This document shows positions 20,980 through 51,400 of a stretch of 60,000 bases of DNA, piece after piece. The position numbers and the translations under genes are program-made. The stretch lies in the NCBI RefSeq assembly GCF_963921235.1, contig NC_086097.1, positions 133,674,001 to 133,734,000 on the forward strand, in the 5' to 3' direction. Below the pieces are notes generated by a model, which worked only from the letters and a program-made list of their open reading frames with translations, had not been told where the DNA came from and did not search any database. Source of the stretch: Mobula hypostoma (Eukaryota). The stretch's first letter is position 1. Each line of letters opens with the position of its first letter.

Positions 20980-22213
20980 CTTGTACAAAGGCTGTTGAAA
21001 ATCTAGTCAAGAAGAAAAGAAAAGCTTACGAAAGGTTCAAAAAAACTAGGTAATGATAGAGATCAAGAAAATTATAAGGCTAGCAGGAAGGAGTTTAAGA
21101 ATGAAATCAGGAGAGCCAGAAGGGGCCATGAGAAGGCCTTGGTGGACAGGATTAAGGAAAACTCCAAGGCATTCTACAAGTATGTGAAGAGCAAGAGAAT
21201 AAGATGTGAGAGAATAGGACCAATCAAGTGTGACAGTGGAAAAGTGTGTATTGAACCGGAGGAGATAGCGGAGGTATTAATACTTTGCTTCAGTATTCAC
21301 TATGGAAAAGGACCTTGGTGATTGTAGGGATGACTTACAGCAGACTGAAAAGCTTGAGCATATAGACATTAAGGAAGAGGATATGCTGGAGCTTTTGGAA
21401 AGCATCAAGTTGGATAAGTCACCGGGACCAGATGAGATATATCCCAGGCTATTGTGGGAGGTGAGGGAGGAGATTGCTGAGCCTCTGGCAATGATCTTTG
21501 CATCATTATTGGGGATGGGAGAGATTCCGGAGGAATGGAGGGTTGCAGATGTTGTTCCCTTATTCAAGAAAAGGAGTAGAGATAGCCCAGGAAACTATAG
21601 ATCAGTGCATCTTACTTCAGTCGTTGGTAAGTTGATGGAGAAGATCCTGAAAGGCAGGATTTATGAACATTTGAAGAGGTATAATATGATTAGGAATAGT
21701 GATCTGGCTTTGTCAAAGGCGGGTCATGCCTTACGAGGCTGATTGATTTTTTTAAGGATGTAACTAAACACGTTAATGAAGGTAGAGCAGTAGATGTAGT
21801 GTATATGGATTTCAGCAAGGCATTTAATAAGGTACCCCATGCAAGACTTATTGAGAAAGTAAGGAGGCATGGGATCCAAGGGGACCTTGCTTTGAGGATT
21901 CAGAACTGGCTTGTCCGCAGAAGGCAAAGAGTGGTTGTAGATGGGTCATATTCTGCATGAAGGTTGGTGACCAGTGGTGTGCTTCAAGGATCTGTTCTGG
22001 GACCTCTGCTCTTCGCAATTTTTATAAGATGACCTGGATAAGGAAGTGAAGGGATGGGTTAGTAAATTTGCTGATGACACAAAGGTTAAGGGTGTTGTGG
22101 ACAGTGTGGAGGACTGTCAAAGGTTACAGTGGGACATCGATAGGATGCAAACAACACACATAAAAGTTGCTGGTGAACGCAGCAGGCCAGGCAGCATCTC
22201 CAGGAAGAGGTAC

Positions 22214-22249
22214 AGTCGACGTTTCGGGCCGAGACCCTTCGTCAGGACT
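22214..22249 (-). ncRNA. Minimal type-I hammerhead ribozyme motif
   Basis: rc = agtc CTGACGA a gggt-ctcg-gccc GAAA c GTC gact: complete core, stem I agtc/gact, stem II, palindromic loopless stem III (ACGT). Confidence 0.75.
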
Positions 22250-22294
22250 AACTGAAAGAAGAGATAGTAAGAGTTACTAGCTCTTCTTTCAGTT

Positions 22295-22330
22295 AGTCCT
22301 GATGAAGGGTCTCGGCCCGAAACGTCGACC
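22295..22330 (+). ncRNA. Minimal type-I hammerhead ribozyme motif
   Basis: agtc CTGATGA a gggt-ctcg-gccc GAAA c GTC gacc; stem I is reduced to 3 bp. Confidence 0.7.
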
Positions 22331-23259
22331 GTACCTCTTCTTAGAGATGCTGCCTGTCCCGCTGCGTTCACGAGCAACTTTTATGTGTGTGGCTTGAAAT
22401 TCCAGCATCTGCAGATTTCCTCGTTATAGGATACAGAACTGGGTTGAGAAGTGGCGGATGGAGTTCACCCAGATAAATGTGAGGTGGTTCATTTTGGTAG
22501 GTCAAATAAGATGACAAATTGTAGTATTAATGATAAGACTCTTGGCAGTGTGGAGGATCAGAGGGATCTTGAGGTCCATGTCCACAGGACACTCAGAGCT
22601 GGTTCACAGGTTGACTGTGTGGTTAAGAAGGCATACAGTGCATTGACCTTCATCAACCTTGGGATTAAGTTCAAGAGCCGAGAGATAATGTTACAGCTGT
22701 ATAGAACCCTGGTCAGACCCCACGGGGAGTACTGTGCTCATTTCTGGTCACCTCACTACAGGAAGGATGTGGAAACCATAGAAAGGGTGCAGAGAAGATT
22801 TACAAGGATGTTGCCTGGATTAGGGAGCATGCCTTACGAGAATAGGTTGAGTGAACTTGGTCTTTTATTGTTGGAGTGATGGAGGATGAGAGGTGACCTG
22901 ATGGAGGTGTATAAGACGATGAGAGGCATTGATCGTGTGGATAGTCAGAGACTTTCTCCCAGAGCTGAAATAGCTAACATGAGAGGGCATAGTTTTAAGG
23001 TGCTTGGAAGCAGGTACAGAAGGGATGTCAGGGGTATGTTTTTTACAAAGAGAGTGGTGAGTGCGTGGAATGGGCTGCTGGCGACTGTGGTGGAGGCGGA
23101 TACAATAGGGTCTTTTAAGAGGCTCCTGGATAGGTACATGGAGCTTAGAAAAATTGAGGGCTGTGGGTAACCCTGGGTAATTTCTAAAGTAAGTACATGC
23201 TTGGCACAGCATTGTGGGCCGAAGGGCCTGTATTGCGCTGTAGAATTTCTATGTTTCTA

Positions 23260-24408
23260 TGTTTGGTAAGGGTCCGCATGGTAGGCTCATTCCAAAAGTC
23301 TAGAGCCATGGGATTAATGGAAACTTGACTGTGTGGATTTAGGTTCAGAATTGGGTTGCCTACAGAGGGCAGAGGATGGTTGTAGATGAAGAGTATTCTG
23401 CCTGGAGGCCAGTGACCAGTGGTGTTCTGTAGGGATCTGTTCTGGCACCTCTGCTCTTTGTGATTTTCATAAATCACTTGGATGAGGAGGTGGAATGGTG
23501 GGATAGTAAGTTTGCAGGTGACACAAAGATTGGTAGTGTTGTGGAATATGTGGAGGTTTGTTGTAGGTTGCAACAGGACATTCACGGGATGCAGGGTTGG
23601 GCTGAGAAGTGGCAGATGGAGCTCAATCCAGAAAAGTGTGAAGTGATCCATTTTGGAATGTTGAATTTGAGGGCAGAAACAGGGATAATGGCGGGATTCT
23701 TGGCAGTGTGGAGGGACAGAGGGCTCTTGGGGTCCACATCCATAGATCCCTCAGAGTTGCCGTGCAAGTTGATAGGTCTGTTAGGAAGATTTATGGTGTG
23801 CTGGACTTCACTAGTCAGGGGATTGAGTTCAAGATATGCCAGGTAATGTTACAGTTCTATAAAATCCTGTGTAGAACACACTTAGATCTTTGTGTTCATT
23901 TCTTGTTGTCTCAGAATAGAAAGGATGTGGAAGCTTTAGAGAGGGTGCAGAGGAGATTTAACTGTATGCTGTCTGGACTGGAGGACATGTCCTATGAAGA
24001 TAGGTTGAGTGAGCTCGCGGTTTTCTCTTTGGAGCAAAGGAGGATGAGAGGTGACTTGATAGAGATGTATAGGGTTATAAGAAGCATAGATAAAGTGGAT
24101 AACCAGAGACTTTTTTCCCAGGGCAGAAATGGCTAATACAAAGGGGTACAATTTTAAGGTGGTTGGGTGAAAGTATTAAGGTAAGTTCTTTACTTAGAGA
24201 ATGGTGGGTGTGTGGAACACCCTGCCAGGGGTGGTAGTAGAGGCAGGTATATTAGAGGCATTTAAAAAACTCTTAGATATGCACATGAATGATAGAAAAA
24301 TTGAAGGTTATGTCAGAGGTAAGGGTTGAATTGATCTAACAGTAGGTTAATATATCTGGCTCAACATCGCTGGCCAAAGGGCCTGTACTGTGCAGTAATG
24401 TTCTGTGA
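23260..24408 (+). mobile_element. CR1 copy A, right part
   Basis: Resumes as tttggtaagggtccgcatggtaggctcatt (F-GKGPHGRLI), continuing the motif broken at 20979; KFAGDT; 3' end at ~24408. Confidence 0.85.
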
Positions 24409-29050: not shown

Positions 29051-29814
29051 ACCAGTCAAGTGGAAACTGACTTATGCCTTTCTTTAGGAGTTAGGAGAGA
29101 TGAGAGCTGACTCAGATATATGAGAATAAAACCCCACCAAAGCTGCTGAAGAGATGTAAGTTTAAGGGAATAAGCACATGTGGAATGGAGACTTGGTCTC
29201 AGTAATGGTGGCCTTAGAGAGCCATACACAGGCGCACCTTTAAGAGCTGTTGCCTCACAACTCCAGTGACCCAGGTTTGATTGAGAACCCCAGTACTGTC
29301 TGCTTGTTCTTTCTATGACAGAATGGGCCTGCCCCAGTCGCTCCTGTTTCCTCTCACACCCTGAAGGCACGATCGGCTAATTGGTTACAGTAAATTGTCC
29401 CTAGTGCGCAGATGGGTGGTAGAATCTAGGGGCAGTAGATGAGACAGTGGGAATGGGTTTGTTAGGAATGTAAGTTTAATGGTTAGCAAAGCCTCGGTGA
29501 TGCCTGTTTCTACACTGTATGCTTCCATAAAGCTACGGAACTGTTGTAGCAAATACTTATCCAACTCCAAGTCAAGCTTATTGTCATTTAACTCTGCATA
29601 TGTATACTGTCAATGTTTCTCCACACTAGGGTGGAAAGCACAGTATTGTACACAGCATACATATAACACACAATAACTTAGGAAAGTAAGAATTAAGTCA
29701 ACAAATGAATTACACATAGGTCAACAAAGTAAAGTGAATAAATTAAATATTGCAGGGTACAGTACAAATTAGCCGGTGGCACTTCAAATGTCCTTCAGCG
29801 AAAGGAATCTTCCA

Positions 29815-30670
29815 AGCACGAGAAAATTTACAGATGCTGGAAATCCAAATCAAAACACAAAATGCAGGAGGAAATTAGTAGGTTGGGCAGCATCTATGGA
29901 AAAGCATAAACAGTTGATGTTTCACGCCGGGACCCTTCATCAGGACCGGAAAGGAAGGAGGACAAAATCAGATAAGAAAGTGGGGGGAGGGGAGGAGCAA
30001 GTACAAGATGGGAAGTGATTGGTGATCGTATGGATAATCAGAGTCTTTTTCCCAGGGCTGAAATGGCTAACATGAGAGGGCACAGATTTAAGGTGCTTTG
30101 AAGTAGGTACAGTGGAGATGTCAGGGGTAAGTTTTCTATGCAGAGAGTGGTGAGTGCATGGAATGGGCTGCCAGCGACGGTGGTGGAGGCGGATACGATA
30201 GGGTCTTCTAAGAGACTCCTGGATAGGCACATGGAGCTTAGAAGAATAGAGGGCTTGGGTAACCCTAGGTAATTTCTAAAGTAAGTACATGTTCGGCACA
30301 GCATTGTGGGCCGAAGGGCCTGTATTGTGCTGTAGTTTTTCTATGTTTCTATGTTAAACCCGGAGGGGGGGAAGGGGTGAAGTAAAGAGCTGGGAAGTTG
30401 ACTGGTAAAAGAGATAAAGGGCTGGAGAAGGGGGAATCTGATAGGAGAGGACAGAAGACCATGGAGGAAGCGAAAGTGGGAGGAGCACCAGAGGGAGGTA
30501 ATGGGAAGGTAAGAAAAGAAGGTGTGAAAGAGAAACAAGAACGGGGAATGGTGAAGGAGAGGAGGGGGGAATTACCAGAAGTTTGAAAAATTGATGTTCA
30601 TGCCATCAGCTTGGTGGCTACCCAGACAGAATATAAGATGTTGCTCCTCCAACATGAGTGTCAGTACATG
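29815..30670 (-). mobile_element. Penelope-like element 3' end, interrupted by a CR1 3' fragment
   Basis: GIY-YIG tail at 30590-30665, same family as 28148-28612; hammerhead-like rc ggtcctgatgaagggtcccggcgtgaaacatcaac near 29913-29947. Confidence 0.75.
30023..30355 (+). mobile_element. CR1 3' end, same subfamily as copy B
   Basis: Closely matches 22930-23262 and ends in ttctatgtttctatgtt. Confidence 0.9.
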
Positions 30671-31971
30671 GCGTCCTCTGCTGTCACCATACCCCAATCT
30701 TGTTTCCCTTTCACACCTTTTCCATGGGAATCTTCCACTCCTTCAGTGTTTATGTGACTCCTGTCAATGTGATCGACTCTCATTACTTATTTATTTCAGG
30801 AGCAGTGAGGAATGGACAACAAATTTTGGCTTTGCCAGTGAGGTTGTCATCCTATCATTGAATGACAAAATAAAATAGATTCCGTGTTTCCCCCTGCAAA
30901 ATGTCAAAAGGTCAAAAAAAAGCCCTGTAGTTGCCCCAATTTTCAAAAAAAGTAAAATGCTGCAAATACTCAACAGGAATGTGGAGAGAGATTTCATCAG
31001 AACAAATGACGAAAGGCAATTGCCATTCCCATGGACCTGTTGAGCATTTCTGGTAATTCTGTTTTTATTATTGAAAAGGAGTTCTGATTTGAATAGGAAA
31101 TCATGACATTTCAGCGGATTACCAGCAAGGTTACAAATGGCCAATAAGGTTGCCTCATGATCTTCAGTAGTTTCAGTCTACCTCCCTTGCCCTCGGTACA
31201 TCAGACTTCCACTCATCCACCCACCTCTCCATCTCAAACACCATTGCCCAGTGACCTCACAAATTCTCTGTCTCAAAACACCATTCCCAAGTGACCACAC
31301 AAATTTGTTAGAAAGTTCTGTCAGCAAGATCCGTGGGAGTTGAGCAAGTACCTGGAACTTTCAGCTGCCTTCATAATTGACTGACGTAGGGTTAAAAAGA
31401 AAACTGATATGTTGTTGCAGGTTTTGAGTTGTTCTGCAATCTTGCAGTTCAATAATTGCTCACCTGCTCTGTGTTGTCAGTTCCAATCATCTTGGTGTGG
31501 GCAGGAAACTAAAAGCGTCAGATCCTTCTTCTGGAGAGGAACCCTTATCATTGTGTTACTTACCTTTAGTTCAGGACCCAATTTGGTATCTGTCGAAGTA
31601 TACTAAGCTAATGGCCTTTCATTGATGGCCAATGCTGCAATGTCACATGGGTCACAGGTGATATAATGGGCGTCATGATCACATCAGAGCCAAAAGTTGA
31701 AGTAATAGACTGGAACTTGGTAAAGGGCCTTTTAAATGGAATATTAAACTGCTATTCAAGTGCAAATCAAGGCACCGCACAATTGGAGAGAATGTATATG
31801 AGCACAGGAAAATAGGAGCAGGAGTAGGCCACTTGAACTGTCAGCATGATCATTGGCTGACTTAGCCCTGGGTTCAGCTCCTGCTTTGTGCCAGATCTCC
31901 ATAGCCCTCAAATCACAATCTTTCAAAAGTTTATCAACCTTCTCTGAAAGTGGAGGTTCTGTCCGGGTTAC

Positions 31972-32209
31972 ACAAGAAACTGCAGATGCTGGAATCCAGA
32001 GCAACAATCATCTGGAGGAACTCAATAGGTCGAGCAAAGCCAATGCAGGAGGAAAGGAAGTGTTGATGCTTCAGATCTAAACCGTGCATCAGGACCCTGC
32101 ATCTGCAGTTCTGATGCAGGGCGTCGCCCCAAAATGTCAGCAGTTCCTTTCCTCACACAGGTGCTGCACTTCCTGCTGAATTCTACCAGCAGTTTGGTTG
32201 TTGCTCCTC
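31972..32209. mobile_element. Older Penelope-derived foldback insertion
   Basis: Perfect 10-bp TSD tccgggttac at 31962-31971 and 32210-32219; degenerate inverted arms around tgcatcagga...ttctgatgca. Confidence 0.7.
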
Positions 32210-32777
32210 TCCGGGTTACGAACACCTGACTTACATACGGATTATAGATACAGACACACATCTGGGAGAATGGGTGGGGAAGATTTACTGTCTGTTGCAG
32301 AGCTGCAGGCATTTTCTGCCATGTGGGAATCAATTGACAGCTGAGTTAAATGCCCTGGTTTAACTGCACGTTGTCCTTGTTTGCCCAGGGTTTTTATTTA
32401 AATATATTTCCAGGCAGCTGCATTTCCAACTTGTGATTTGTTCCAGCTATAACAGTTCTCAGGAACTGTACCTGCATTTCGAATGAATAACCTCCACAAC
32501 TGTCTGAGAAATCTGGAGGTTCACCACCCTCTGTGAGATGAAATTTCTATGTACCTCGGTTTTAAGTGAGGTATATCCTGAATTCAAGACTGCTCCATTT
32601 GTGAAAAGATATTGACATCTACCCTGTCAAGCTCCCGTACAATTTTATATGTTTCCCTAAGATCACTGACATTCATCCACTCTCCGGAGAATACAGGCCC
32701 AATCTGTTTAGCCTCTCCTAAAACTCTCATCCCAGAACGAGTGAGGTAAATCTCCTTTAGACAACCTCCAACACTAC

Positions 32778-33317: not shown

Positions 33318-34136
33318 AGTGAAAAAGCAGTCTTACATGCCACCTAGACAGAGTATTCCATACAGAAGTATATCAAGGTATTATAAAAGAAAAACAGAGT
33401 TCAGAATACCATTACAGAGAAAGTGCAGTGCGGGTAGACAAATAAAGTGCAAATGCCAAAAGAGGTAGAATGATCTTTATCATACAAAAGGTTCATTCAA
33501 GTGAGATTGACCCATGGTGTATTATACATTACTAGTCTACTTACCCAAGAAAACACAGACTTGACAGACAACGAATGCAGTAAACGTTTGCCAGACTTAT
33601 TCCTGAAGCGGAGGAATTGTCTGCTAGGTGACATTGAGTCAATTAAGCCTCAATTCACCAGAAATGTTTCCCCTGGCTAGGGGCATGTGGGAGGGGAAAG
33701 AAGGGCGCCTTGCACAGGGGTTGTAGACCCTTTGGATTCCACGTAAATCATTTAGGAATGAAATAAGGAGACTTTCTTCACTCAAGAGCATTATAAGTGC
33801 TCTACCACAGGAGATATTGAATATATTTATGAGGGAAATAAGATTTCTGAAGTGGGGAGGAAGTGGGAATATGGTCCTGTGATAAATAATCAGCCCAGAT
33901 AGTATTGAATAGCAGAACAACCTTAAAGGGCAAAGTAGCCTCTATCTGCTCCTACATTCGATGTAGAACTCTGATAATGCATGATGCAATTGTTCAGAAA
34001 GACTGATGGTTCAGACTCTGGGTCATCTGGATCACCAGTGCTCTCCTTAAACTTACTCGAGCCCCACTTCCCGCAATCCCCTTAAACTCATCAGGGACTC
34101 TATTTCATGTACTTCTTTTAAAATAATCAGAGCCCA

Positions 34137-34288
34137 TTAAAATAACCAGAACCAGAGTCCTGATGAAGGGTCTCGGCCCGAAACGTCGACTGTACCTCTT
34201 CCAATAGATGCTGCCTGGCCTGCTGCGTTCCACCAGCATTTTGTGTGTGTTGCTTGAATTTCCAGCATCTGCAGATTTCCTCATGTTT
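34137..34288 (+). mobile_element. Short Penelope-derived insertion carrying a hammerhead
   Basis: Perfect 10-bp TSD tcagagccca at 34127-34136 and 34289-34298; body very similar to 22295-22424. Confidence 0.85.
34156..34191 (+). ncRNA. Minimal type-I hammerhead ribozyme motif
   Basis: agtc CTGATGA a gggt-ctcg-gccc GAAA c GTC gact; all core nucleotides and stem I intact. Confidence 0.75.
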
Positions 34289-35679
34289 TCAGAGCCCACT
34301 CTATCCCTTTTCCCACATTTCCTTTAAATTCACTGAGGGATTACCCTTGTGCTGTTTTTGGCTCTATCTTCATACTCCTTTTAAACTTGGCTGGTTCTTT
34401 GGGAAATTTATTTTACCATATAACATCAAGAAAGTTAATTTGAAGTGTGTTCAGGTATTAATAGGAGTAACATCCAACTGTTCAGAAAATCTTCCAGTCC
34501 GCCACCATTCAAAATCCTAATAGTGTCAGATTATCAGATTTCAAGTGTCCAAGTTAAGGTCAGATATTCTACACAACTATCCCACAAACAAAAGTTAAGT
34601 GCATAGAAACCCTTTCAAAAGTAGTAGTTGAATTAGTCTTAAAATATTTGGAGAAAATGTCCCCTGTGGGGTTTTAAGTTCCAAGATGCTGGAAGTCCAA
34701 GACCTTGGGCTAAATTGAACTTTATGATATATTGCTCCACCTGGAATTGTATATGTGTTTCTAGTGAATGATTTAGCTGCATAAAGAAATGTAAAAACAC
34801 ATTTTCTGATTTACTGCAGGAAATTTGATGTTAACAATGGGGAACTTTCACTTAACTCCACTCGATAAGATAATCCTTCTGTTGAACACATGATTCAGCC
34901 AATGGAAAAACTGCCTTTTGTTTTAGGAAATCAAATGAACCCCCTGTTCTTTCTAATATTTATTATTTCATTGGCTTTAACTCATTTTCTTTTTAATTTA
35001 AAGCAATGACATGACTCCAGAGTGCTCAGTTCTTGCTGTGCTATATTTTCTTGTTTGGATCCAAATGCAATTTAGGAATTTGAAATTCGGGGCTGTAAAG
35101 ATGGATGGACAACCATTTTGTTTGTAACGTGCACACAGCCTCAATTAGAACCGGCCAGATTCAATTCTGAATTTACTCCTGTTAACTCTACACTCTAATA
35201 GAAAATCCATTTTAATTTTGTTACAAAAATGATTGCACCTATGGATGGCCTATTTTTAGCTCCTGCCACGACAGAAATGTTTAAACTGCAGTCGAATACT
35301 AACGGTTGCATTTTATCAATCTCAAAGCTCCGCTGGGTCCTTGGGTTAGAGGCAGAAGAGAAGCAATTTGGGATGTCTGTGACATTGTCCTGAACCCCAG
35401 AGGGAGGGAGAGAGAGGGGAACACTTTGTGAAGATGAAATATATGCCTACCCTTGATGTTCGAAGATTCTGTTTCAGTGGACCCATGTTCCATTACCTCA
35501 GCAGACTTCTGAAATGAGTACAATACTAACCCAAGGCTTTTTGTGAAAGTAACTCCTCAAGGAAACATCTTCTTCTTGGGATCAAGGATGGACTTGCTGT
35601 CATCCCAATTCTATAGGTTCTTAGTTGACTGATGACACCAATGCGGCAACCTCAGATGAGGCAGTAGAAGGGCGATTGG

Positions 35680-36131: not shown

Positions 36132-39100
36132 TCAGAACCCAGCCTTCCCTCCATACCCCGTGACCCCTGTAGCCACAAGGGCCATATCTAACTTCCTTTT
36201 AAACATAGCTAATGAACTGGCCTCAACAGTTTGCTGTGGCAGAGAATTCCACAGATTCACCACTCTCTGTGTGAAGAAGTTTTTCCTAATCTCGGTCCTA
36301 AAAGGCTTCCCCTCTATCCTCAAACTGTGACCCCTCGTTCTAGACCTCCCCAACATCGGGAACAATCTTCCCGCATCTAGCCTGTCCAATCCCTTTAGGA
36401 TCTTATACGTTTCAATCAGATCCCCCCTCAATCTTCTAAATTCCAACGAGTACAAGCCCAGTTCATCCAGTCTTTCTTCATATGAAAGACCTGCCATCCC
36501 AGGAATCAATCTGGTGAACCTTCTTTGTACTCCCTCTATGGCAAGGATGTCTTTCCTCAGATTAGGGGACCAAAACTGCACACAATACTCCAGGTGTGGT
36601 CTCACCAAGGCCTTGTACAACTGCAGTAGTACCTCCCTGCTCCTGTACTCGAATCCTCTCGCTATAAATGCCAGCATACCGTTCGCCTTTTTCACCGCCT
36701 GCTGTACCTGCATGCCCACTTTCAATGACTGGTGTATAATGACACCCAGGTCTCGTTGCACCTCCCCTTTTCCTAATCGGCCACCATTCAGATAATAATC
36801 TGTTTTCCTATTTTTGCCACCAAAGTGGATAACTTCACATTTATCCACATTAAATTGCATCTGCCATGAGTTTGCCCACTCACCCAACCTATCCAAGTCA
36901 CCCTGCATCCTCTTAGCATCCTCCTCACTGCTAACACTGCCGCCCAGCTTCGTGTCATCCGCAAACTTGGAGATGCTGCATTTAATTCCCTCATCCAAGT
37001 CATTAATATATATTGTAAACAACTGGGGTCCCAGCACTGAGCCTTGCGGTACCCCACTAGTCACCGCCTGCCATTCTGAAAAGGTCCCGTTTATTCCCAC
37101 TCTTTGCTTCCTGTCTGCTAACCAATTCTCCACCCACACCAATACCTTACCCCCAATACCATGTGCTTTAAGTTTGCACACTAATCTCCTGTGTGGGACC
37201 TTGTCAAAAGCCTTTTGAAAATCCAAATATACCACATCCACTGATTCTCCCCTATCCACTCTACTAGTTACATCCTCAAAAAATTCTATGAGATTCGTCA
37301 GACATGATTTTCCTTTCACAAATCCATGCTGACTTTGTCCGATCATTTCACCGCTTTCCAAATGTGCTGTTATCACATCCTTGATAACTGACTCCAGCAG
37401 TTTCCCCACCACCGACGTTAGGCTAACCGGCCTATAATTCCCCGGTTTCTCTCTCCCTCCTTTTTTAAAAAGTGGGGTTACATTAGCCACCCTCCAATCC
37501 TCAGGAACTAGTCCAGAATCTAACGAGTTTTGAAAAATTATCACTAATGCATCCACTATTTCTTGGGCCACTTCCTTAAGCACTCTGGGATGCAGACCAT
37601 CTGGCCCTGGGGATTTATCTGCCTTCAATCCCTTCAATTTACCTAACACCACTTCCCTACTAACATGTATTTCGCTCAGTTCCTCCATCTCACTGGACCC
37701 TCTGTCCCTTACTATTTCTGGAAGATTATTTATGTCCTCCTTAGTGAAGACAGAACCAAAGTAATTATTCAATTGGTCTGCCATGTCCTTGCTCCCCATA
37801 ATCAATTCACCTGTTTCTGTTTGCAGGGGACCTACATTTGTCTTTATCAGTCTTTTCCTTTTTACATATCTATAAAAGCTTTTACAGTCCGTTTTTATGT
37901 TCTCTGCCAGTTTTCTCTCATAATCTTTTTTCCCCTTCCTAATTAAGCCCTTTGTCCTCCTCTGCTGAACTCTGAATTTCTCCCAGTCCTCAGGTGAGCC
38001 ACTTTCTCTGGCTAATTTGTATGCTACTTCTTTGGAATTGATACTATCCCTAATTTCTCTTGTCAGCCACGGGTGCACTACCTTCCTTGATTTATTCTTT
38101 TGCCAAACTGGGATGAACAATTGTTGTAGTTCATCCATGCAACCTTTAAATGCCTGCCATTGCATATCCACCGTCAATCCTTGAAGTGTCATTTGCCAGT
38201 CTATCTTAGCTAATTCATGTCTCATACCTTCAAAGTTACCCCTCTTTAAGTTCAGAACCTTTGTTTCTGAATTAACTACGTCACTCTCCATGTTAATGAA
38301 GAATTCCACCATATTATGGTCACTCTTACCCAAGGGGCCTCTCACGACAAGATCGCTAATTAACCCTTCCTCATTGCTCAAAACCCAGTCCAGAATAGCC
38401 TGCTCTCTAGTCGGTTCCTCGACATGTTGGTTCAAAAAACCATCCCGCATACATTCCAAGAAATCCTCTTCCTCAGCACCTTTACCAATTTGGTTCACCC
38501 AGTCTACATGTAGATTGAAGTCACCCATTATAACTGCTGTTCCTTTATTGCACACATTTCTAATTTCTTGTTTAATACCATCTCCGACCTCACTACTACT
38601 GTTAGGTGGCCTGTACACAACTCCCAGCAGCGTCTTCTGCCCCTTAGTGTTACGCAGCTCTACCCATATCGATTCCACATCTTCCCGGCTTATGTCCTTC
38701 CTTTCTATTGCGTTAATCTCTTTTTTAACCAGCAACGCCACCCCACCTCCCCTTCCTTCATGTCTATCCCTCCTGAATATTGAATATCCCTGAACGTTGA
38801 GCTCCCATCCCTGGTCACCCTGGAGCCATGTCTCTGTGATCCCAACTATATCATAATCATTAATAACAATCTGCACTTTCAATTCATCCACCTTATTACG
38901 AATGCTCCTTGCATTGACACATAAAGCCTTCAGGCGCTCTTTTACAACTCTCTTAGCCCTTTTTAATGCTTGCCCTGGATTTGTCGGCCTGCCACTTTTA
39001 CTTTTCCCCTTTGTACTTTTTGCTTCTACGCTCACTTTACACCCCTCTGTCTCTCTGCACTGGTTCCCATCCCTCTGTTGTGAACTAACCTCCTCACACC

Positions 39101-39152
39101 TAGCCGCTTTAATTTGATTCCCACCCCCCAACCATTCTAGTTTAAAGTCACC
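36132..39152 (-). CDS. CR1 ORF2: APE endonuclease plus reverse transcriptase (frame open from 39152, no N-terminal ATG)
   Basis: APE motifs VNARSI, ITETW, YRPP, MGDFN, SDH. RT motifs PGPDG, NYRPVSLTS, QHGF, DFQKAFD, GVPQGSVLGP, FADD. No stops over about 1000 codons. Confidence 0.95.
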   Translation of the reverse strand, partial: GDFKLEWLGGGNQIKAARCEEVSSQQRDGNQCRETEGCKVSVEAKSTKGKSKSGRPTNPGQALKRAKRVVKERLKALCVNARSIRNKVDELKVQIVINDYDIVGITETWLQGDQGWELNVQGYSIFRRDRHEGRGGGVALLVKKEINAIERKDISREDVESIWVELRNTKGQKTLLGVVYRPPNSSSEVGDGIKQEIRNVCNKGTAVIMGDFNLHVDWVNQIGKGAEEEDFLECMRDGFLNQHVEEPTREQAILDWVLSNEEGLISDLVVRGPLGKSDHNMVEFFINMESDVVNSETKVLNLKRGNFEGMRHELAKIDWQMTLQGLTVDMQWQAFKGCMDELQQLFIPVWQKNKSRKVVHPWLTREIRDSINSKEVAYKLARESGSPEDWEKFRVQQRRTKGLIRKGKKDYERKLAENIKTDCKSFYRYVKRKRLIKTNVGPLQTETGELIMGSKDMADQLNNYFGSVFTKEDINNLPEIVRDRGSSEMEELSEIHVSREVVLGKLKGLKADKSPGPDGLHPRVLKEVAQEIVDALVIIFQNSLDSGLVPEDWRVANVTPLFKKGGREKPGNYRPVSLTSVVGKLLESVIKDVITAHLESGEMIGQSQHGFVKGKSCLTNLIEFFEDVTSRVDRGESVDVVYLDFQKAFDKVPHRRLVCKLKAHGIGGKVLVWVENWLADRKQRVGINGTFSEWQAVTSGVPQGSVLGPQLFTIYINDLDEGIKCSISKFADDTKLGGSVSSEEDAKRMQGDLDRLGEWANSWQMQFNVDKCEVIHFGGKNRKTDYYLNGGRLGKGEVQRDLGVIIHQSLKVGMQVQQAVKKANGMLAFIARGFEYRSREVLLQLYKALVRPHLEYCVQFWSPNLRKDILAIEGVQRRFTRLIPGMAGLSYEERLDELGLYSLEFRRLRGDLIETYKILKGLDRLDAGRLFPMLGRSRTRGHSLRIEGKPFRTEIRKNFFTQRVVNLWNSLPQQTVEASSLAMFKRKLDMALVATGVTGYGGKAGF

Positions 39153-40072
39153 TCAGTAGCCCCCGCTAATCTCCCTGCCAGGATATTGGTCCCCCTAGGA
39201 TTTAAGTGTAACCCGTCCTTTTTGTACAGGTCACACCTACGCCAAAAGAGGTCCCAATGATCCAAAAACTTGAATCCCTGCCCCCTGCTCCAATCCCTCA
39301 GCCACGCATTTATCCTCCACCTCATCGCATTCCTACTCTCACTGTCGCGTGGCACAGGCAGTAATCCCGAGATTACTACCTTTGCGGTCCTTTTTCTCAA
39401 CTCCCTTCCTAGCTCCCTATATTCTTCTTTCAGGACCTCATCCCTTTTCCTACCTATGTCATTGGTACCTATATGTACCAGGACCTCTGGCTCTTCACCC
39501 TCCCACTTCAGGATATCTTGGACACGATCAGAAATATCCCGGACCCTGGCACCAGGGAGGCAAACTACCATCCGAGTCTCTGGACTGCGTCCACAGAATC
39601 GCCTATCTGACCCCCTTACTATCGAGTCCCCTATCACAACTGCCCTCCTCTTCCTTGCCCTACCCTTCTGAGCTACAGGGCCAGACTCTGTGCCGGAGGC
39701 AGGGCCACTGTCGCTTCCCCCGGGTAAGCTGTCCCCCCCAACAGTACTCAAACAGGAGTACCTGTTGTTAAGGGGCACAGCCGCCGGGGTACTCCTCATC
39801 ACCTGCCTTTTCCCCTTCCCTCTCCTAACCGTGACCCACTTGTCTGCCTCCCGTGGCCCCGGCGTGACCACCTGCCTTCCACTCCTCTCTATCACCTCCT
39901 CGCTCTCCCTGACCAGACGAAGGTCATCGAGCTGCAGCTCCAGTTCCGTAACGCGGTCCCTTAGGAGCTGCATCTCGATGCACTTGGCGCAGATGTAGAC
40001 GTCCGGGAGGCTTGGAGACTCCAGGGCCTCCCACATCCGACACCGAGAACAGCAAACTGCCCTCACAGTCAT
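39137..40072 (-). CDS. CR1 ORF1: zinc finger, leucine zipper and SGNH esterase, 311 aa
   Basis: ATG at 40072; C-X2-C-X16-C-X2-C; heptad LRDRVTELELQLDDL; SGNH blocks GDS, PGA, GTND and DGLH. Confidence 0.93.
   Translation of the reverse strand: MTVRAVCCSRCRMWEALESPSLPDVYICAKCIEMQLLRDRVTELELQLDDLRLVRESEEVIERSGRQVVTPGPREADKWVTVRRGKGKRQVMRSTPAAVPLNNRYSCLSTVGGDSLPGGSDSGPASGTESGPVAQKGRARKRRAVVIGDSIVRGSDRRFCGRSPETRMVVCLPGARVRDISDRVQDILKWEGEEPEVLVHIGTNDIGRKRDEVLKEEYRELGRELRKRTAKVVISGLLPVPRDSESRNAMRWRINAWLRDWSRGQGFKFLDHWDLFWRRCDLYKKDGLHLNPRGTNILAGRLAGATEVTLN
39140..39146 (-). other. Candidate -1 ribosomal frameshift slippery site T TTA AAC
   Basis: Minus strand reads acT TTA AAC TAG in the ORF1 frame; the -1 frame (TTT AAA CTA GAA TGG TTG...) is ORF2. 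Confidence 0.65.
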
Positions 40073-40384
40073 AATGCCCCTCTCCTCAAATAGCAACAGA
40101 AAATGAATGTCAAACCTTCCTCGCCTCGCCCGCTTCCGCCTAAGCCCGTTGAGCCGAAGCCCTTAAGTCTTCACTCTGTTCCCGGCTCACTCCGCCGCCC
40201 GCAAACTACGCTGCCCGCTCTATGAGGCTTTGTTCCTTTTAAATCTGCCGCGCTGCACTGCTCGACGTCACACGCCTGCGCAGTCCCGCCTCTCAGAAAG
40301 CCGTTGGAGAAAAAAAAATAACGAAAATTTCAAAAATCTCTTTCTCGGCACTCCCACTCAGACTCTCAGACTCCTTCTTCGAAT
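40073..40384 (-). promoter_or_regulatory. CR1 5' UTR and putative internal Pol II promoter
   Basis: CpG-dense in a CpG-poor background. Minus strand carries gaggcgggac (GC box), tgcgcaggcg (NRF1-like), tgacgtcg (CRE-like) and atttaaaa (TATA-like), in that order. Confidence 0.6.
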
Positions 40385-42815: not shown

Positions 42816-43564
42816 TCTCCTGGCTCTGAGTGCTTGGAAATGGGATAAGCTTGAATGTTCATCTTGATCAGCACAAAGGACTTTTTCCATACTATAGAAC
42901 TCTATAATTTCATATTTTAGGCCACCTTTGGCCCACCTTGTACGAATGTTAGTTAGTATCCCATTCTGTATTGCCTGCTCCACCTCTTCCGAGGTGGGGT
43001 TTGGGAGCTCAACTACAGACACAGTTGGTGGCCAGAACTGGGAGGAAAATGTTCTGGTTCAGGGGTGAAAGGAACAGATTTTTACCTGCCTGTCTTCCCC
43101 TTCTGACTAGGATAGTCAGGAGAAGAGGGATTTCCCTGCGTTCTTGTTACAGCAGTTAACAAGAGCACTGATTTTGCCCTGTAGGACTAGGTGGGGGAGT
43201 TTGAGACACTCACACTCTTTTTGTAGATAAGCTAGGGATGGGGTTCAATAAAGAGGGAGATGAGAGACACTGGAAGTTATCTGTGGAGAGGTTGGTGGTT
43301 TGAGGAGTTCAGAAACACAGGCTTTTTTCATGGGGCTGTATAGAGGAAACATTTGAGGGTGTGGCATGATCTGAGGTTATCATCGAGTCATAAAAGCTTC
43401 CAGTTGAAATAGTCCTCACAGCACATTTCATCCTTGCTGACTATCTACGAAAATACAATTTTCTTGTAGATTTTCCATGTCATTCCTTTCCTATCCAGGT
43501 ACCTGTCTGAATGCCTTATAAATGTTCTAATAGTATCTTTCTCCCCCAACTCCACTGGCAGCTT

Positions 43565-44432
43565 ATTGCTTTCACCCTGACACAGTGGTGTCAAGAAAAC
43601 AACCTCTCTCTCAATGTCGCAAAAACGAAGGAGCAGGTTGTGGTCTACAGGAGGAACAGAGACAGGCTAGCCCCTATTGACATCAATGGATCTGGGGTTG
43701 AGAGGGTGACCAGCTTTAAGTTCCTCGGCATAAGCATCACCGAGGATTTCACGTGGTCTGTACATACTGGCTGTGTGGTGAAAAAGGCACAAAAGTGCCT
43801 CTTTCACCTCAGACGGTTGAAGAAGTTTTGTATGGGCCCCCAAATTCTAAGAACTTTCTATAGGGGCACAACTGAGAGCATCCTGACTGGCTGCATCACT
43901 GCCTGGTATGGGAACTGTACTTCCCTCAATCGCAGGCCTCTGCAGAGAGTGGTGTGGACAGCCCAGCGCATCTGTAAATGTGAACTTCCCACTATTCAGG
44001 ATATTTACGTAGACTGGTGTGTAAAAAGGGCCCAGAGGATCACTGAGGACCCAAATCACCCCAACCACAAACTGTTCCAGCTGCTACCATCTGGAAAACG
44101 GTACCACGGCATAAAAGCCAGGACCAACAGGCTCTGGGACAGCTTCTTCCACCAGACCACCAGACTGATTAACTCATGCTGACACAACTGTATTTCTATG
44201 TTATATTGACTATCCTGTTGTACATACTATTTATTATAAATTACTATAAATTGCACATTTCAAAGTTGCTGGTGAATGTTCACCAGCAACTTTGATGTGT
44301 GTTGCTTGAATTTCCAGCATCTGCAGAATTCCTGTTGTTTGCATAAATTGCACATTGCACATTTAGACAGAGATGTAACGTAAAGATTTTTACTCCTCAT
44401 GTATATGAAGGATTTAAGAAATAAAGTCATTT
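43565..44432 (+). mobile_element. Relatively young Rex1/Babar LINE 3' fragment (about 200 open codons, stop at 44182)
   Basis: WCQENNLSLNVAKTKE...SFKFLG...LRRLKKF...ESILTGCITAWYGNC; 3' end aaataaagtc. Confidence 0.85.
44260..44342 (+). mobile_element. 83-bp Penelope-derived foldback insertion
   Basis: 14-bp TSD ataaattgcacatt at 44246-44259 and 44343-44356; perfect 17-bp hairpin tcaaagttgctggtgaa-tg-ttcaccagcaactttga. Confidence 0.85.
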
Positions 44433-46061: not shown

Positions 46062-47039
46062 GACCTTCTGCAAAATCTACCCGTTTTGGGGTTATCAGGA
46101 TTTCTCCATCCCCACGGAGCAGAAAGTGATGGAGGTCTTTTGGTGATGGAGTGGGGAATGTGGCAAATACCCTTGTGGATTTGAACTAGGCCTTAAAGAG
46201 GCGTGGGACAAGTATTTTTGGCATAAAAATCAGACAAGTGCTGACTGGTTCATCTAGAGAGAATCAGCTGTTCTCTGCAGATAGTTACAGATCAGTGTTG
46301 CTATTGGATGAAAAGTCAGCCAGCTGTTTGGAAAGCATTTTTATTGACTATTTACACTGGCAGTGTTTAAATCTTCACTGGATCGTATCCTTGTTTTTAC
46401 CACCCACATGCTTAAGAGAGTCAGCTATGGATTTGAGCCACCAGACTGTTACCAGCAAAATACACTAAATTGGGCAATCAAATTCTCCCTGATCACACCA
46501 TTGAAAATGATTATTCAACATAGAAGTCCAATGTTTATCAAAGAAGCAGTCATACTTCTTTTAATTTAATGAATGGATTTGGCAAAACAAATTCCTGTTG
46601 ACAATTAAAAGGCAAGTCATGTCAACAGGAAAGCTATGTGATATCCCCAGTAGAAGAGGTACTATATTTTAACAAGGTACATGTGTATATTGTTTTTAAT
46701 AACAGCATATTAAACAAGAGAATTGCCCTTTTCTCCTCTGTCTACACTTCACTTTGGGCTATTTTTGGAATAAATGAATACTTCAGCAGAAATCGATGCC
46801 ACCGTTGGAACAACAAAGGTTTTCCAACAAGTAAAACTATCTGAAGTTTATATAATTTACAGAAAAAATCGCAGTAAACTGGTCAGTTAATAACAGCAGT
46901 GACACATGCATTCCTTCATTGTTCAGGACTACAAAACAAGGTTAATCTACTTTGTTTGGTTTTATATTACTAAATTGTGATTTCCAACAACTCTGCATGC
47001 TTGGGATTGTTGTTAATTTACATTCTACAGCTTTGTCAA

Positions 47040-47632
47040 ACACTTCCGCTCCAACTGCAAAAAGCAGGATTTCCCAGTGGCCAACCATTTTCTTTCCTAC
47101 CCACATTCTTGTTATGACATATCAGGCCATGGCCTCCTCTTCTGCCACGATGAGGCCACTCTCAGGTTGAAGGAGCAACACCTCATATTCTGTCTAGGTA
47201 GCCTCCAACCTGATGGCATGAGCTTTGATTTCTCCAACCTTCCATAATTTTTCTTCCGCTCCCCTTGTCTTCAATTCCCCACTCTGGCCTCTTTACCTCT
47301 TCTCCACACCTGCCTATCACCTCTCCCTGGTGCTGCTCTTATTTCCTTTTTTTTCCATGGTTCACTCTCCTCTCCCACAAGCTTCCTTCTCCTCCAGCCC
47401 TTTACCTTTTCCACCTATTGCCCCCCCCCAGCTACTTACTTCATACCTCCTCCCCCACCCACCTGGCTTCGTCTATCACCTTCTAGATTGTCCTCCTTTC
47501 CACCCCCCACCTTTACCAGGTGTGAGGAAGGGTCTCCGCCTGAAAAGTCGATTCATTTCCTTAGATACTGTCTGACCTGATGAGTTTCTCCAGCATTGTG
47601 TGTGTTGCTCAGGATTTCCAGCGTCTTGTGTT
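47040..47632 (+). mobile_element. Penelope-like element 3' end
   Basis: PVANHF...GLLFCHDEATLRLKEQHLIFCLGSLQPDGM (GIY-YIG C-terminus), pyrimidine tract, degenerate hammerhead at ~47518-47553. Confidence 0.8.
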
Positions 47633-47764
47633 TAAGATTAAGAATCACTGGGCCTTCAGCAAACAGAAAGATAGATGACTCGTGAGCCATTTTGGATAAG
47701 GCAAAATTCCAGCTGCAGAAAAGATTAACTGGGTCAAACTCTGCCCTTTACCTGTGGACATGAT

Positions 47765-48410: not shown

Positions 48411-51400
48411 CTTTTGAACTTAATTCTGAGGTCAGGTGCTGTCTATGTGGAGCTTGCATGCTCTCCCTCACATTACAAAGATATTTGGGTTAATGGGTTA
48501 ATTGGTCTATATAAATTTTTCCTCCTTTGTGGGTGAAAGGTAGAATCTTGGGGGGGTGTGATTGATGGGAATGAGGGGATGAAAGAATAGGATAGGATGA
48601 AATGAATATTAAAATGTATGCTTGATGGCCAGCACAGGGTCATTGGGCTGAAAGGCCTGTCTCCAAGCTGTGTCACCAAGGCTCTATAACCTCAGAAGTT
48701 GCACATCTTACAATTTCTCTGGTACGTCAAAATGGAAGCCGCTATAATCTCTGGATAGATTGTGCGGCAGCTCCAGAAAGACAAACAGTTAGGATAGAAA
48801 TTAGTTCTGTACAGTAACCCATGCACTTTGAAAGTCATCTCCGGGGACTCCTGCTGCTGTAAGGAGTTTGTCTGTTCTCCCGTGACCACGTGGGTTTCCT
48901 CTGTGTTCCCCGGTTTCCTCCTACATGTGTGTTAATAGGCTAACTGGTCACATGGGTGTAACTGGACAGCATAGGATCATTGGGGCAGAAAGGCCTGTTA
49001 CTGTGATGCCTCTCTAGGTAAATACCTCAAAATAAAATAAAATTAATAAAAGATCTTAATAACCAATAGCATTAATAGATTTTGGGGAGAAACCAGGTAA
49101 ATGGATTCATCAATTATATCAACGAATTGCAGAAGAGACTGGAGGCTTCCTTGTATTGTGTTGTTCCTAAAAGATTTTTGCCCATGTGCGCATTGCCTTA
49201 ACATCCTCTGAAGACTTTCTGAAGCCGTTACCCCTATGCTGAGTTGCAACGCCCAGAATTCTCCATCACAGCGTTGCTGAGACCCAACTTAACAGCTGCA
49301 GTCCGAATTTGGTCCAAACACTTTACACGACAGTTGGGAAATGGATCCTTGACTTTAAACTTGTAACAAAACAAACCTTAAGCTGCTGTCATTTTCTAAC
49401 AGGAGTGGTTAACACGTTATTTGTACAAAATATAAACATAATTTACCAGGAAGAATCATTGTGCTAGGCAGCTTTCAAACCCAGCCATGTATGATCCCGA
49501 AAGAACTGTTCATTGAACCAAATATGAGGTTGTAGACAAATCTGTTGTAGCTTCAGTTGGGGATAGTGGACAAAAAGGTGGGGGTAGGCTTTGCCGTTAT
49601 AGAATAAACAATAGATGCAAGAAGAGTTTGGAAAGGTGAGAGGGAAGATTACAGTAGATTAATTTAGTGTCATATATACCAGGGTGCAATGAAATTCCTT
49701 GTTCACATGAAGCTCACAGAGTTAACAGTATGTGTGGTAACAATAAACACAATGATGAACGCAAAACGGTACAGTGGTGCAAAGTTTGTGGTGCCATTAA
49801 GTAATGCAAAAAGAAATGCTAAAGAGATAATAACTGAAAGAGGTAGAGATTAAGAATCCAAGAACATGGCAACACAGTAGAAAAGAGATGTGAAAGAGGT
49901 GATTGGTTCAGAAATCTGGCAGCAGTAAGGAAAAAAACTGATCTTCAGTCTGATCATCTAGGCTTTCAAGCTCCTGCATCTTCTCCCACAGAAAAGATTT
50001 CACTGGCTAGGAAAGGAATATTAATGTTAGCAGCTAATATTCTGCTCTCCAAAGACACACGTTGGAATGTAACCCAGATCAGGCTTGGTAATTTTTAAGG
50101 TATCTCAGCTGGTGACATGCAACAGACATTAGACCCCTGATATGCATTGGCCTGAAACTGTTTCTGATCCACTTACCTCCCATTAAAACTATTCTTTCCT
50201 TTAATGGGTTGCTCAGCACAAATCTTCCCAAAGATGGTGCAATGAAAGGGGAACTTAATTAATGTTGTTAAAACCTTGAAAGGTTTTGATGGGGTGGATG
50301 CAGATGGCATGTTTCCTCTTGGGATCCATTTTCCCTCCATTTCTTTCAGTTTTTTCACTAAGATATTGGAGAAGAGCTGATTACTTGAGTCGATGAACAA
50401 GGCTACCTTATTTATAAAAAAGCTTACACAGAGCAAGGCAACATTTTTTGGCTCTTTGCCTGCTGTGGCTTCTCCATGGAGGCAGATCTCTCCAGGTAGA
50501 TTCTCCCGATGTAGCCTCTGGGAGAACCCACAGTGAGAGCCATCAGTTGCACACTACAATTCTTAAATCATACCCAAACAATAATGGGTTATCAATTCCA
50601 AGAAAGAGGCATCATTAAAAAGTGAACAGTGTTTTTTGATGGAAAATGGCAGAGAACAGCTGGAATGTGGAGGTTACCGATAATATAGGAAGTGGTCAAG
50701 GTCTTTAAGGACAAGTGCTATAAATATATGAGGGAGAAAGGAAAACAAAAAGGGTGAAACTCTGGTGATGTGGAGACAAGCATGGGACATAATGTAAGCA
50801 TAGAGCAGCTGAATCCATCTACTGGCTTATTTCTGAAGTCTACTTCTCTGACTGGGTTACTGAGAGATGTTGGCTTTTGGATGAGCAAACACACTAGCAC
50901 CCTGACCTCTTCCTCACTTGGATATAAAGTATTCCCAAATTTTGAAATTTTTCCTTGAGCCGTGGGCAATATTTACGTTATTTTATTACAAAAATGAATA
51001 GTAACTTCGATTGTTATAAGCCTATGTAATATTTGTGCAGAATGTCCTGTGTTGCTCACTGGGGCACTGTATTCTGTCAATAAATCTCTCATTCTGTCTC
51101 CCAGCAAGGCAAGGATTGTACTCTGAAAATAAACACAGACCAGCACATATATAATTGGGAAACTGAGTTCTGTGAACAAGGACAAAAAAAAATCATTTTT
51201 CAATTCAACTCATTTCAAAGCAAGTTGTCTGATCATGAGCACGTTAATGTTTTCAGGCCTTGCTATAAGCAGATTGGTTCCCATGCTTCCTAAAAACAGG
51301 TTATAAACTGCTTCTGTTGTCACTAGTTCCCCAGTCTTGCTTTCTGCATTCGTACCACTGGAATTCCTGGTTTAGCTGCATCGCCTTCGATGAAATTGTC

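Follow-up and report, generated by a model that had tools for sequence, protein, structure and literature searches.

Penelope-like elements that encode an endonuclease (EN+) leave insertions of a characteristic form, with an inverted 5'-truncated copy, a tail of 30–40 bp, target-site duplications of 8–10 bp and palindromic junctions, as described in the accessible portions of PMC8557442 and PMC3846280. Minimal hammerhead ribozymes (min-HHRs) have been reported in the pseudo-LTRs (pLTRs) of metazoan Penelope-like elements; as monomers they did not cleave and as dimers they cleaved at a low level, and the material available from the same study (PMC4209133) includes pairs of motifs lying 100–700 bp apart on opposite strands and a second, opposite-strand motif at the 5' end of an element. 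The in vitro reaction of PAc, a Poseidon element from Anolis, involves nicking and extension of both target strands, and two reverse transcription (RT) start sites bound the tail; the hammerhead of PAc is protein assisted and is dispensable for insertion in vitro (PMC11167929). Non-LTR retrozymes have been found in one chondrichthyan, according to the part of the preprint that could be consulted (bioRxiv 10.64898/2026.07.22.740005). The inverted arm, the tail, the duplication and opposite-strand pairs of hammerheads are all already in print. A search of the open literature found no paper linking Penelope-like elements and hammerhead ribozymes to elasmobranchs, although the family described here may be catalogued in subscription papers or repeat databases, and the searched supplement of PMC4209133 contained no shark or skate names.

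We analyzed a palindrome at about 22 kb (22k) of a 60-kb window (the whole stretch of DNA studied, 60,000 nt). We conclude, with a probability of about 0.88, that it is a defunct insertion, head to head and truncated at the 5' side, of the 3' end (pLTR) of an endonuclease-bearing Penelope-like element, probably of Neptune type, in a genome that is probably that of a ray. Its features are listed in Table 1.

Table 1. Features of the 22k insertion, its host element and a sibling copy connecting the family with its parent
Feature	Position	Strand	Basis or remarks
Host: decayed LINE RT-coding region, broken just after the FADD motif	21281..22876	+	Each side is 55% identical to the APE+RT ORF (36132-39152)
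Target-site duplication, left copy (LINE RT sequence)	22140..22149	+	9/10 match to 22427-22436; the site occurs a single time in an uninterrupted LINE copy near 23587
Left arm: inverted, 5'-truncated copy of the element 3' end, without tail; last 3 letters are the 'spacer'	22150..22273	-	Inverted-repeat alignment; upstream family letters from loose contig ends
Left-arm minimal type I hammerhead motif	22214..22249	-	C3 at 22245, predicted cut after 22218, 4-bp stem I; 12/12 core letters; fits the min-HHR consensus of PMC4209133 Fig. S3 (as far as accessible)
Right arm: sense copy of that 3' end, truncated at its 5' side; begins 25 nt upstream of hammerhead C3	22274..22394	+	
Right-arm minimal type I hammerhead motif	22296..22329	+	C3 at 22299, predicted cut after 22326, 3-bp stem I; 12/12 core letters
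One-sided 32-nt tail, the element's longer 3' end	22395..22426	+	In copies at 29.9k, 32k, 34k, 44k and 47k; missing at 8k and 28k; family end near 22424
Target-site duplication, right copy	22427..22436	+	
Sibling copy connecting the family with its parent; contains the C-terminal frame of GIY-YIG, a 3' region rich in pyrimidines, a decayed hammerhead and the tail	47032..47633	+	

The arms (22154–22270 and 22274–22390) are complementary at 109 of 117 positions, and a repeat finder extended them to 123 nt at 92% identity. RNA of 22140–22440 was predicted to fold at -220.5 kcal/mol (z = -25.9; none of 100 shuffles was equally good), with a longest unbroken run of 49 pairs in the 123-bp stem. The first-pass annotation, made from the sequence without database searches, had described two 117-bp arms around a 3-nt spacer. 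The arms stand, but the spacer does not: its letters, GAG, are the reverse complement of the three family letters immediately upstream of the start of the right arm (loose-end consensus, agreement 0.63–0.76), which makes them the final 3 nt of a longer left arm and leaves no inserted letters at the join. The join also lacks microhomology. Similarly, the 10-bp duplication that had been thought to bound the 237-bp palindrome is genuine (9 of 10 letters alike), but it bounds a 277-bp insert (22150–22426) that includes a 32-nt tail, present on the right side only and without a pairing partner. An inverted 5'-truncated copy, a one-sided tail and a short duplication, which are features of EN+ Penelope-like insertions, are therefore all present at this locus.

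The proposal that the unit interrupts a LINE was correct. The flanks align to residues 717–756 and 770–903, stretches that follow one another in an intact endonuclease+RT ORF at 36132–39152 of the window, and when the insert is removed one LINE RT frame is restored. We take the host LINE to be a CR1. The intact ORF belongs to a nearly complete LINE (36132–40162, minus strand), in which a 1006-aa frame with endonuclease and RT domains comes after a 341-aa frame that contains a GDS motif and is presumably an SGNH esterase ORF1.

An nhmmer search of the window with a profile built from nine of its segments identified a family of 15 matches at 13 loci. The copies at 28k, 29.9k and 47k extend far enough upstream, past a pyrimidine-rich stretch, to include the C terminus of a GIY-YIG endonuclease, which the 22k stump does not reach; the young subfamily of the 22k copy is 71–77% identical to these older, endonuclease-linked copies, and this is its only tie to that frame. 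Judged by the GIY-YIG frame of the sibling copies, the family has its place among the endonuclease-bearing Penelope-like elements, in agreement with the annotated Penelope-like pLTR origin and inverted 5' end, and the anatomy of the insertion matches that in print. We found 86 protein relatives of the frame at E ≤ 0.001. A Pfam scan of 19 of these detected GIY-YIG at E ≤ 0.01 in 10, with two above the curated cut-off; three were fused gene models with matches to host proteins only, and four gave no match. The 70-aa endonuclease fragment alone had no Pfam match, a word-indexed search with it recovered one relative, and exact-pattern scans of viral, metagenome (two patterns) and prokaryote collections recovered no loci. 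No RT of the family was found in the 60-kb window; among the relatives, RT-like motifs are visible by eye in P0008, which lacks a Pfam match, and P0032 has RVT_1 and a weak GIY-YIG match. The close relatives P0004, P0008 and P0028 carry a CX2-5CxxC linker before GIY-YIG, and the window fragments begin downstream of it. This cysteine linker is given for both Neptune and Nematis in the accessible text of PMC8557442; on the strength of the linker in these relatives, the family is probably of Neptune type. The gene models P0012, P0024, P0028 and P0034 join the endonuclease fragment to host proteins (7tm_1, RecQ5/SRI, DUF4518 and NYAP); these fusions are probably annotation artefacts of an abundant repeat.

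A clear adjoining inverted arm was detected at 3 of the 13 loci, namely 22k, 32k and 44k (scores of 206, 58 and 38, versus shuffle maxima of 33, 30 and 33); the 16.0k locus was borderline (28 versus a shuffle maximum of 26), and nine loci had none. Each of the three palindromes has its own 10–14 bp duplication and a 2–3 nt offset between the arms at the join. Relative to hammerhead C3, their turns lie at -25/-28 (22k), about -7 (32k, by eye) and about +68 (44k). The position of the turn determines the hammerhead content of the product: the 22k insert has two because its turn fell upstream of the motif, and the 44k palindrome, which turns downstream of it, has none. The 3' ends of family copies form two classes separated by about 30–40 nt, with the inverted arms starting near the inner position; tail-less single copies (8k and 28k) end where the inverted arm of 22k starts.

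Individual copies have further features. The 44k palindrome (44245–44357, plus strand) is a miniature with 22-nt arms and a 14-bp duplication, one end of which has about five letters in common with the element at the inner start site; its turn lies in the loop of a small family hairpin. It is situated in the 3' region of a 223-aa frame (43511–44182, plus strand) that resembles the C-terminal part of the RT of another LINE type. The 32k palindrome (31962–32219, minus strand) is old: its two hammerheads have decayed to 10/12 core letters each, and its duplication is 10–12 bp long. A copy of about 920 bp at 29805–30740 (minus strand) is enclosed in an 11-bp duplication and has a LINE 3' end nested in it; its own 5' end is an inverted piece of its 3' region (30674–30719 versus 30519–30563). 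A young single copy at 34125–34300 (plus strand), with an intact motif and a 12-bp duplication, is truncated at the start of stem I and preceded by 17 letters of unknown origin.

We infer that the palindrome was made at insertion and then decays, whichever of two routes produced it. By analogy with PAc, the element protein would nick both target strands 10 nt apart, and each nicked 3' end would prime reverse transcription on element RNA. Initiation at the outer start site would yield the right arm and its tail, and initiation about 32 nt further in would yield the left arm without a tail; both cDNAs would stop 25–28 nt upstream of the hammerhead and be joined end to end without microhomology, and gap filling would create the target-site duplication. 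The two 3'-end classes of the family correspond to the two RT start sites and the tail of PAc (PMC11167929). We lean slightly toward this two-primer origin of the second arm. The alternative involves the same element and the same dead product, with a second arm made by fold-back: the cDNA or antisense template would prime its own synthesis at the turn, and the endonuclease would resolve the intermediate at the tail. The near-equal length of the arms requires either that one RNA was copied twice to its end or that fold-back occurred; it is unexpected from two independently truncated cDNAs and, unless one RNA was copied to its 5' end, fits fold-back at least as well. The near-symmetric turns with 2–3 nt between the arms in all three palindromes also favor fold-back, as do the subfamily letters, which are the same in both arms of 22k. 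As far as the available text goes, self-priming was inferred from palindromic junctions in PMC3846280, and the tail was ascribed to endonuclease-mediated resolution in PMC8557442. However, the inverted arm starts at the end point of the tail-less copies, a point that serves PAc as an RT start site in vitro; both nicked strands are extended in the PAc reaction (PMC11167929); and the 22k join has no stem that could prime synthesis. We therefore consider fold-back a tenable explanation but distinctly less probable than priming from both nicks.

Both arms of the 22k palindrome contain all 12 hammerhead core letters. Each consists of CUGANGA, an additional A following A9, a GGGU/GCCC stem II closed by a 4-nt loop, GAAA, CG, UC and a loopless ACGU at helix III, which bears out the annotation of a full core with an extra A and a palindromic, loopless ACGT stem III in each arm. 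The description of the motif as a minimal, dimer-type hammerhead also held up, in that it fits the min-HHR consensus in the accessible part of PMC4209133. Stem I has 3 bp in the plus-strand arm and 4 bp in the minus-strand arm; the fourth pair is missing from the right arm through a private T-to-C change at 22330. C17 lies at 22326 (plus) and 22218 (minus), exactly at the positions claimed for cleavage, although the cut itself is a prediction. The suggested covariance-model check did not recover the motif: an Rfam scan returned six matches up to E 10, none of them to a hammerhead model, which is unsurprising because the motif has no helix III loop. We rejected identity as a miRNA precursor (MIR6136, mir-961, MIR6024 or mir-515), since these scores were below gathering and reflect only the long hairpin. 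A splice-acceptor-like pyrimidine tract followed by CAG (22279–22295, plus strand) ends four letters before stem I, and in this copy an ATG inside the hammerhead core opens 31 codons. In Drosophila virilis Penelope an intron ends at helix I, according to the accessible part of PMC4209133.

Across copies, the core is better conserved than its flanks, as the annotation of a ribozyme implied. In six older arms compared with the young one, 62 of 72 core positions and 93 of 131 non-core positions were kept (Fisher P = 0.016, with rows that are not independent and non-core positions that are CpG-rich). Against this, C11.1, which lies within a CpG, reads T in 28–50% of contig depth. Position N7 is mixed. 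The better-kept core of the older copies fits selection in the source elements. The intact motif in the 22k copy needs no selection and is expected by chance in a young copy, and the mismatches between its arms did not significantly avoid the ribozyme (P = 0.41 for 12 core positions; P = 0.09 for 29 core and stem positions).

Parts of the stretch were present in 20 of 24 listed sequencing runs, as assembled contigs only. The compared runs contain at most 0.57 of the words and no contig spans the locus, and they may come from related species. On 22250–22700, each DNA run had about 49,000–50,000 contigs, LINE part included. In two DNA runs, summed contig depth, which is not a copy number and comes from assemblers that handle palindromes badly, was 1.3–21.7 million over the arm and tail versus 428 and 852 across the center, a difference of about 10,000-fold. 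The 22k junction is not the norm of the family, and the palindrome is not amplified as a unit; the nonzero depth at the center indicates that a few other copies may turn nearby. Loose contig ends showed that the family continues upstream as ordinary sense sequence. At least two strand-change joints (22310/22347 and 22329/22421) occurred among the 15 of 54 contig joints listed, too few to map turning points. Majority letters identified at least five of the eight arm mismatches as private right-arm changes, with no compensatory pair among the eight. The imbalance between the right and left arms (5–6 versus 2 private changes, the two left-arm changes being inferred) was not significant (P = 0.29–0.45), and the arm differences at 22k gave no sign of two different templates.

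As the first-pass annotation stated, a transcript of either strand would contain one ribozyme together with its own antisense. The annotation's further proposal, that such a transcript partitions between a hairpin and a cleavage-competent dimer, was not upheld. Whichever strand is transcribed, the head-to-head geometry places the antisense arm ahead of the ribozyme, and in predicted folds of the nascent chain the ribozyme positions pair with that arm at a mean probability of 0.96–0.99. Using nearest-neighbor estimates that lack tertiary contacts and protein, we found that forcing stems I and II to form costs 64.7 (plus) and 65.9 (minus) kcal/mol within the full unit, compared with 4–10 in a lone arm, and that pairing of ACGU in a dimer contributes -1.7 to -3.1 kcal/mol. 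A gap of about 65 versus 2–3 kcal/mol is too large for partition. In these models, read-through RNA would fold into one ~120-bp hairpin that keeps both motifs off. The motif was probably selected in the parent element, where it probably acts with protein help or as a dimer; at 22k it is a passenger. Nothing in the sequence, given the private right-arm changes, the lack of a compensatory pair and the nonsignificant placement of mismatches, suggests that the palindrome is selected or regulated.

A by-product compatible with a dead insertion would be hairpin RNA from read-through palindromes that is edited or diced and helps to silence the family. The length of the stem and of its unbroken run would suit such a role, Penelope small RNAs occur in rotifers (PMC3846280, in the part available), and the family is abundant in two runs that we guess to be RNA (X15 and X17). 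In those same runs, however, depth across the center was 14 and 0, versus about 570,000–590,000 at the motif; A>G places numbered 13–14 in DNA and guessed-RNA runs alike, in contigs, which cannot show editing; and no host transcript was identified. We regard this by-product as unlikely. A broader and equally speculative scheme would apply if, genome-wide, arms had two fixed RT sites as starting points and ended at variable places no more than 2–3 nt apart: a protein dimer would copy one RNA from both nicks to its 5' end and join the cDNAs. Because the antisense arm would always come first, insertions that turn upstream of the hammerhead would then be a built-in source of hairpin RNA against their own family, a self-limiting by-product of integration.

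It is very improbable that the 277-bp palindrome is itself the mobile unit of a MITE-like or retrozyme-like nonautonomous family. Such a unit would be short, duplication-bounded and noncoding and would possess the 3' start sites of its parent, as the insert does, and the depth of 428–852 at the center leaves room for a few similar joins; but the three palindromes in the window have three different centers, contig depth, with the caveats given above, drops about 10,000-fold between arms and center, and retrozymes form head-to-tail tandems, unlike this single head-to-head unit. Least credible of all is a regulated switch that divides the transcript between hairpins with silent ribozymes and ribozyme dimers able to cleave, since the two intact motifs and the low-level cleavage in vitro of min-HHR dimers and trimers (PMC4209133, accessible part) are outweighed by the energy penalty, by the prior synthesis of the antisense arm, by the chance expectation of intact cores in a young copy and by the behavior of PAc, whose motif requires the element protein and at whose cut site no RNA-seq reads ended (PMC11167929).

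As a single locus, the head-to-head insertion at 22k is one decaying copy of a known insertion pattern and carries little weight alone. With 13 loci and three palindromes in 60 kb, however, turning points and arm differences collected genome-wide could decide between two-primer synthesis and fold-back in Penelope integration, a question that the cited papers, where accessible, call unresolved. Penelope stumps of this kind can also mislead, as they give strong hairpin z-scores and sub-threshold matches to miRNA models.

The closest described counterparts of the 22k insertion are Pen2a_Av of Adineta vaga (PMC3846280) and the scheme in Fig. 2 of PMC8557442. In the portions of both that were available, an inverted 5'-truncated copy adjoins the 5' end, and there is a one-sided tail, an 8–10 bp duplication and a palindrome at the junction, as at 22k; the tail is 31 long in the Pen2a_Av-type insertion and 32 at 22k. 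Unlike in Pen2a_Av, the 22k arms are so short that no coding sequence remains, and the host is a vertebrate. The 22k motifs fit the >80% consensus given in the accessible part of PMC4209133 (U-rich lead, short helix I, CUGANGA plus one extra nucleotide, G10.1-C11.1, GAAA, palindromic 15.2-16.2 and UH), and the row for Acropora Neptune has an identical layout, but the 22k motifs are about 50 nt apart, in contrast to the wider spacing of the pairs in that study. The hammerhead of PAc lies near the start of the pLTR-ORF (PMC11167929), and at 22k an ATG also lies in the core; PAc is of the Poseidon rather than the Neptune type, and head-to-head joining of cDNAs is outside the scope of that work. 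Non-LTR retrozymes, as presented in the accessible part of the preprint (bioRxiv 10.64898/2026.07.22.740005), resemble the 22k insert in being short and noncoding, in carrying a type I hammerhead and in deriving from the pLTRs of Penelope-like elements, but they are head-to-tail tandems with ribozymes on the same strand, whereas the 22k insert is a single unit with its two ribozyme motifs head to head.
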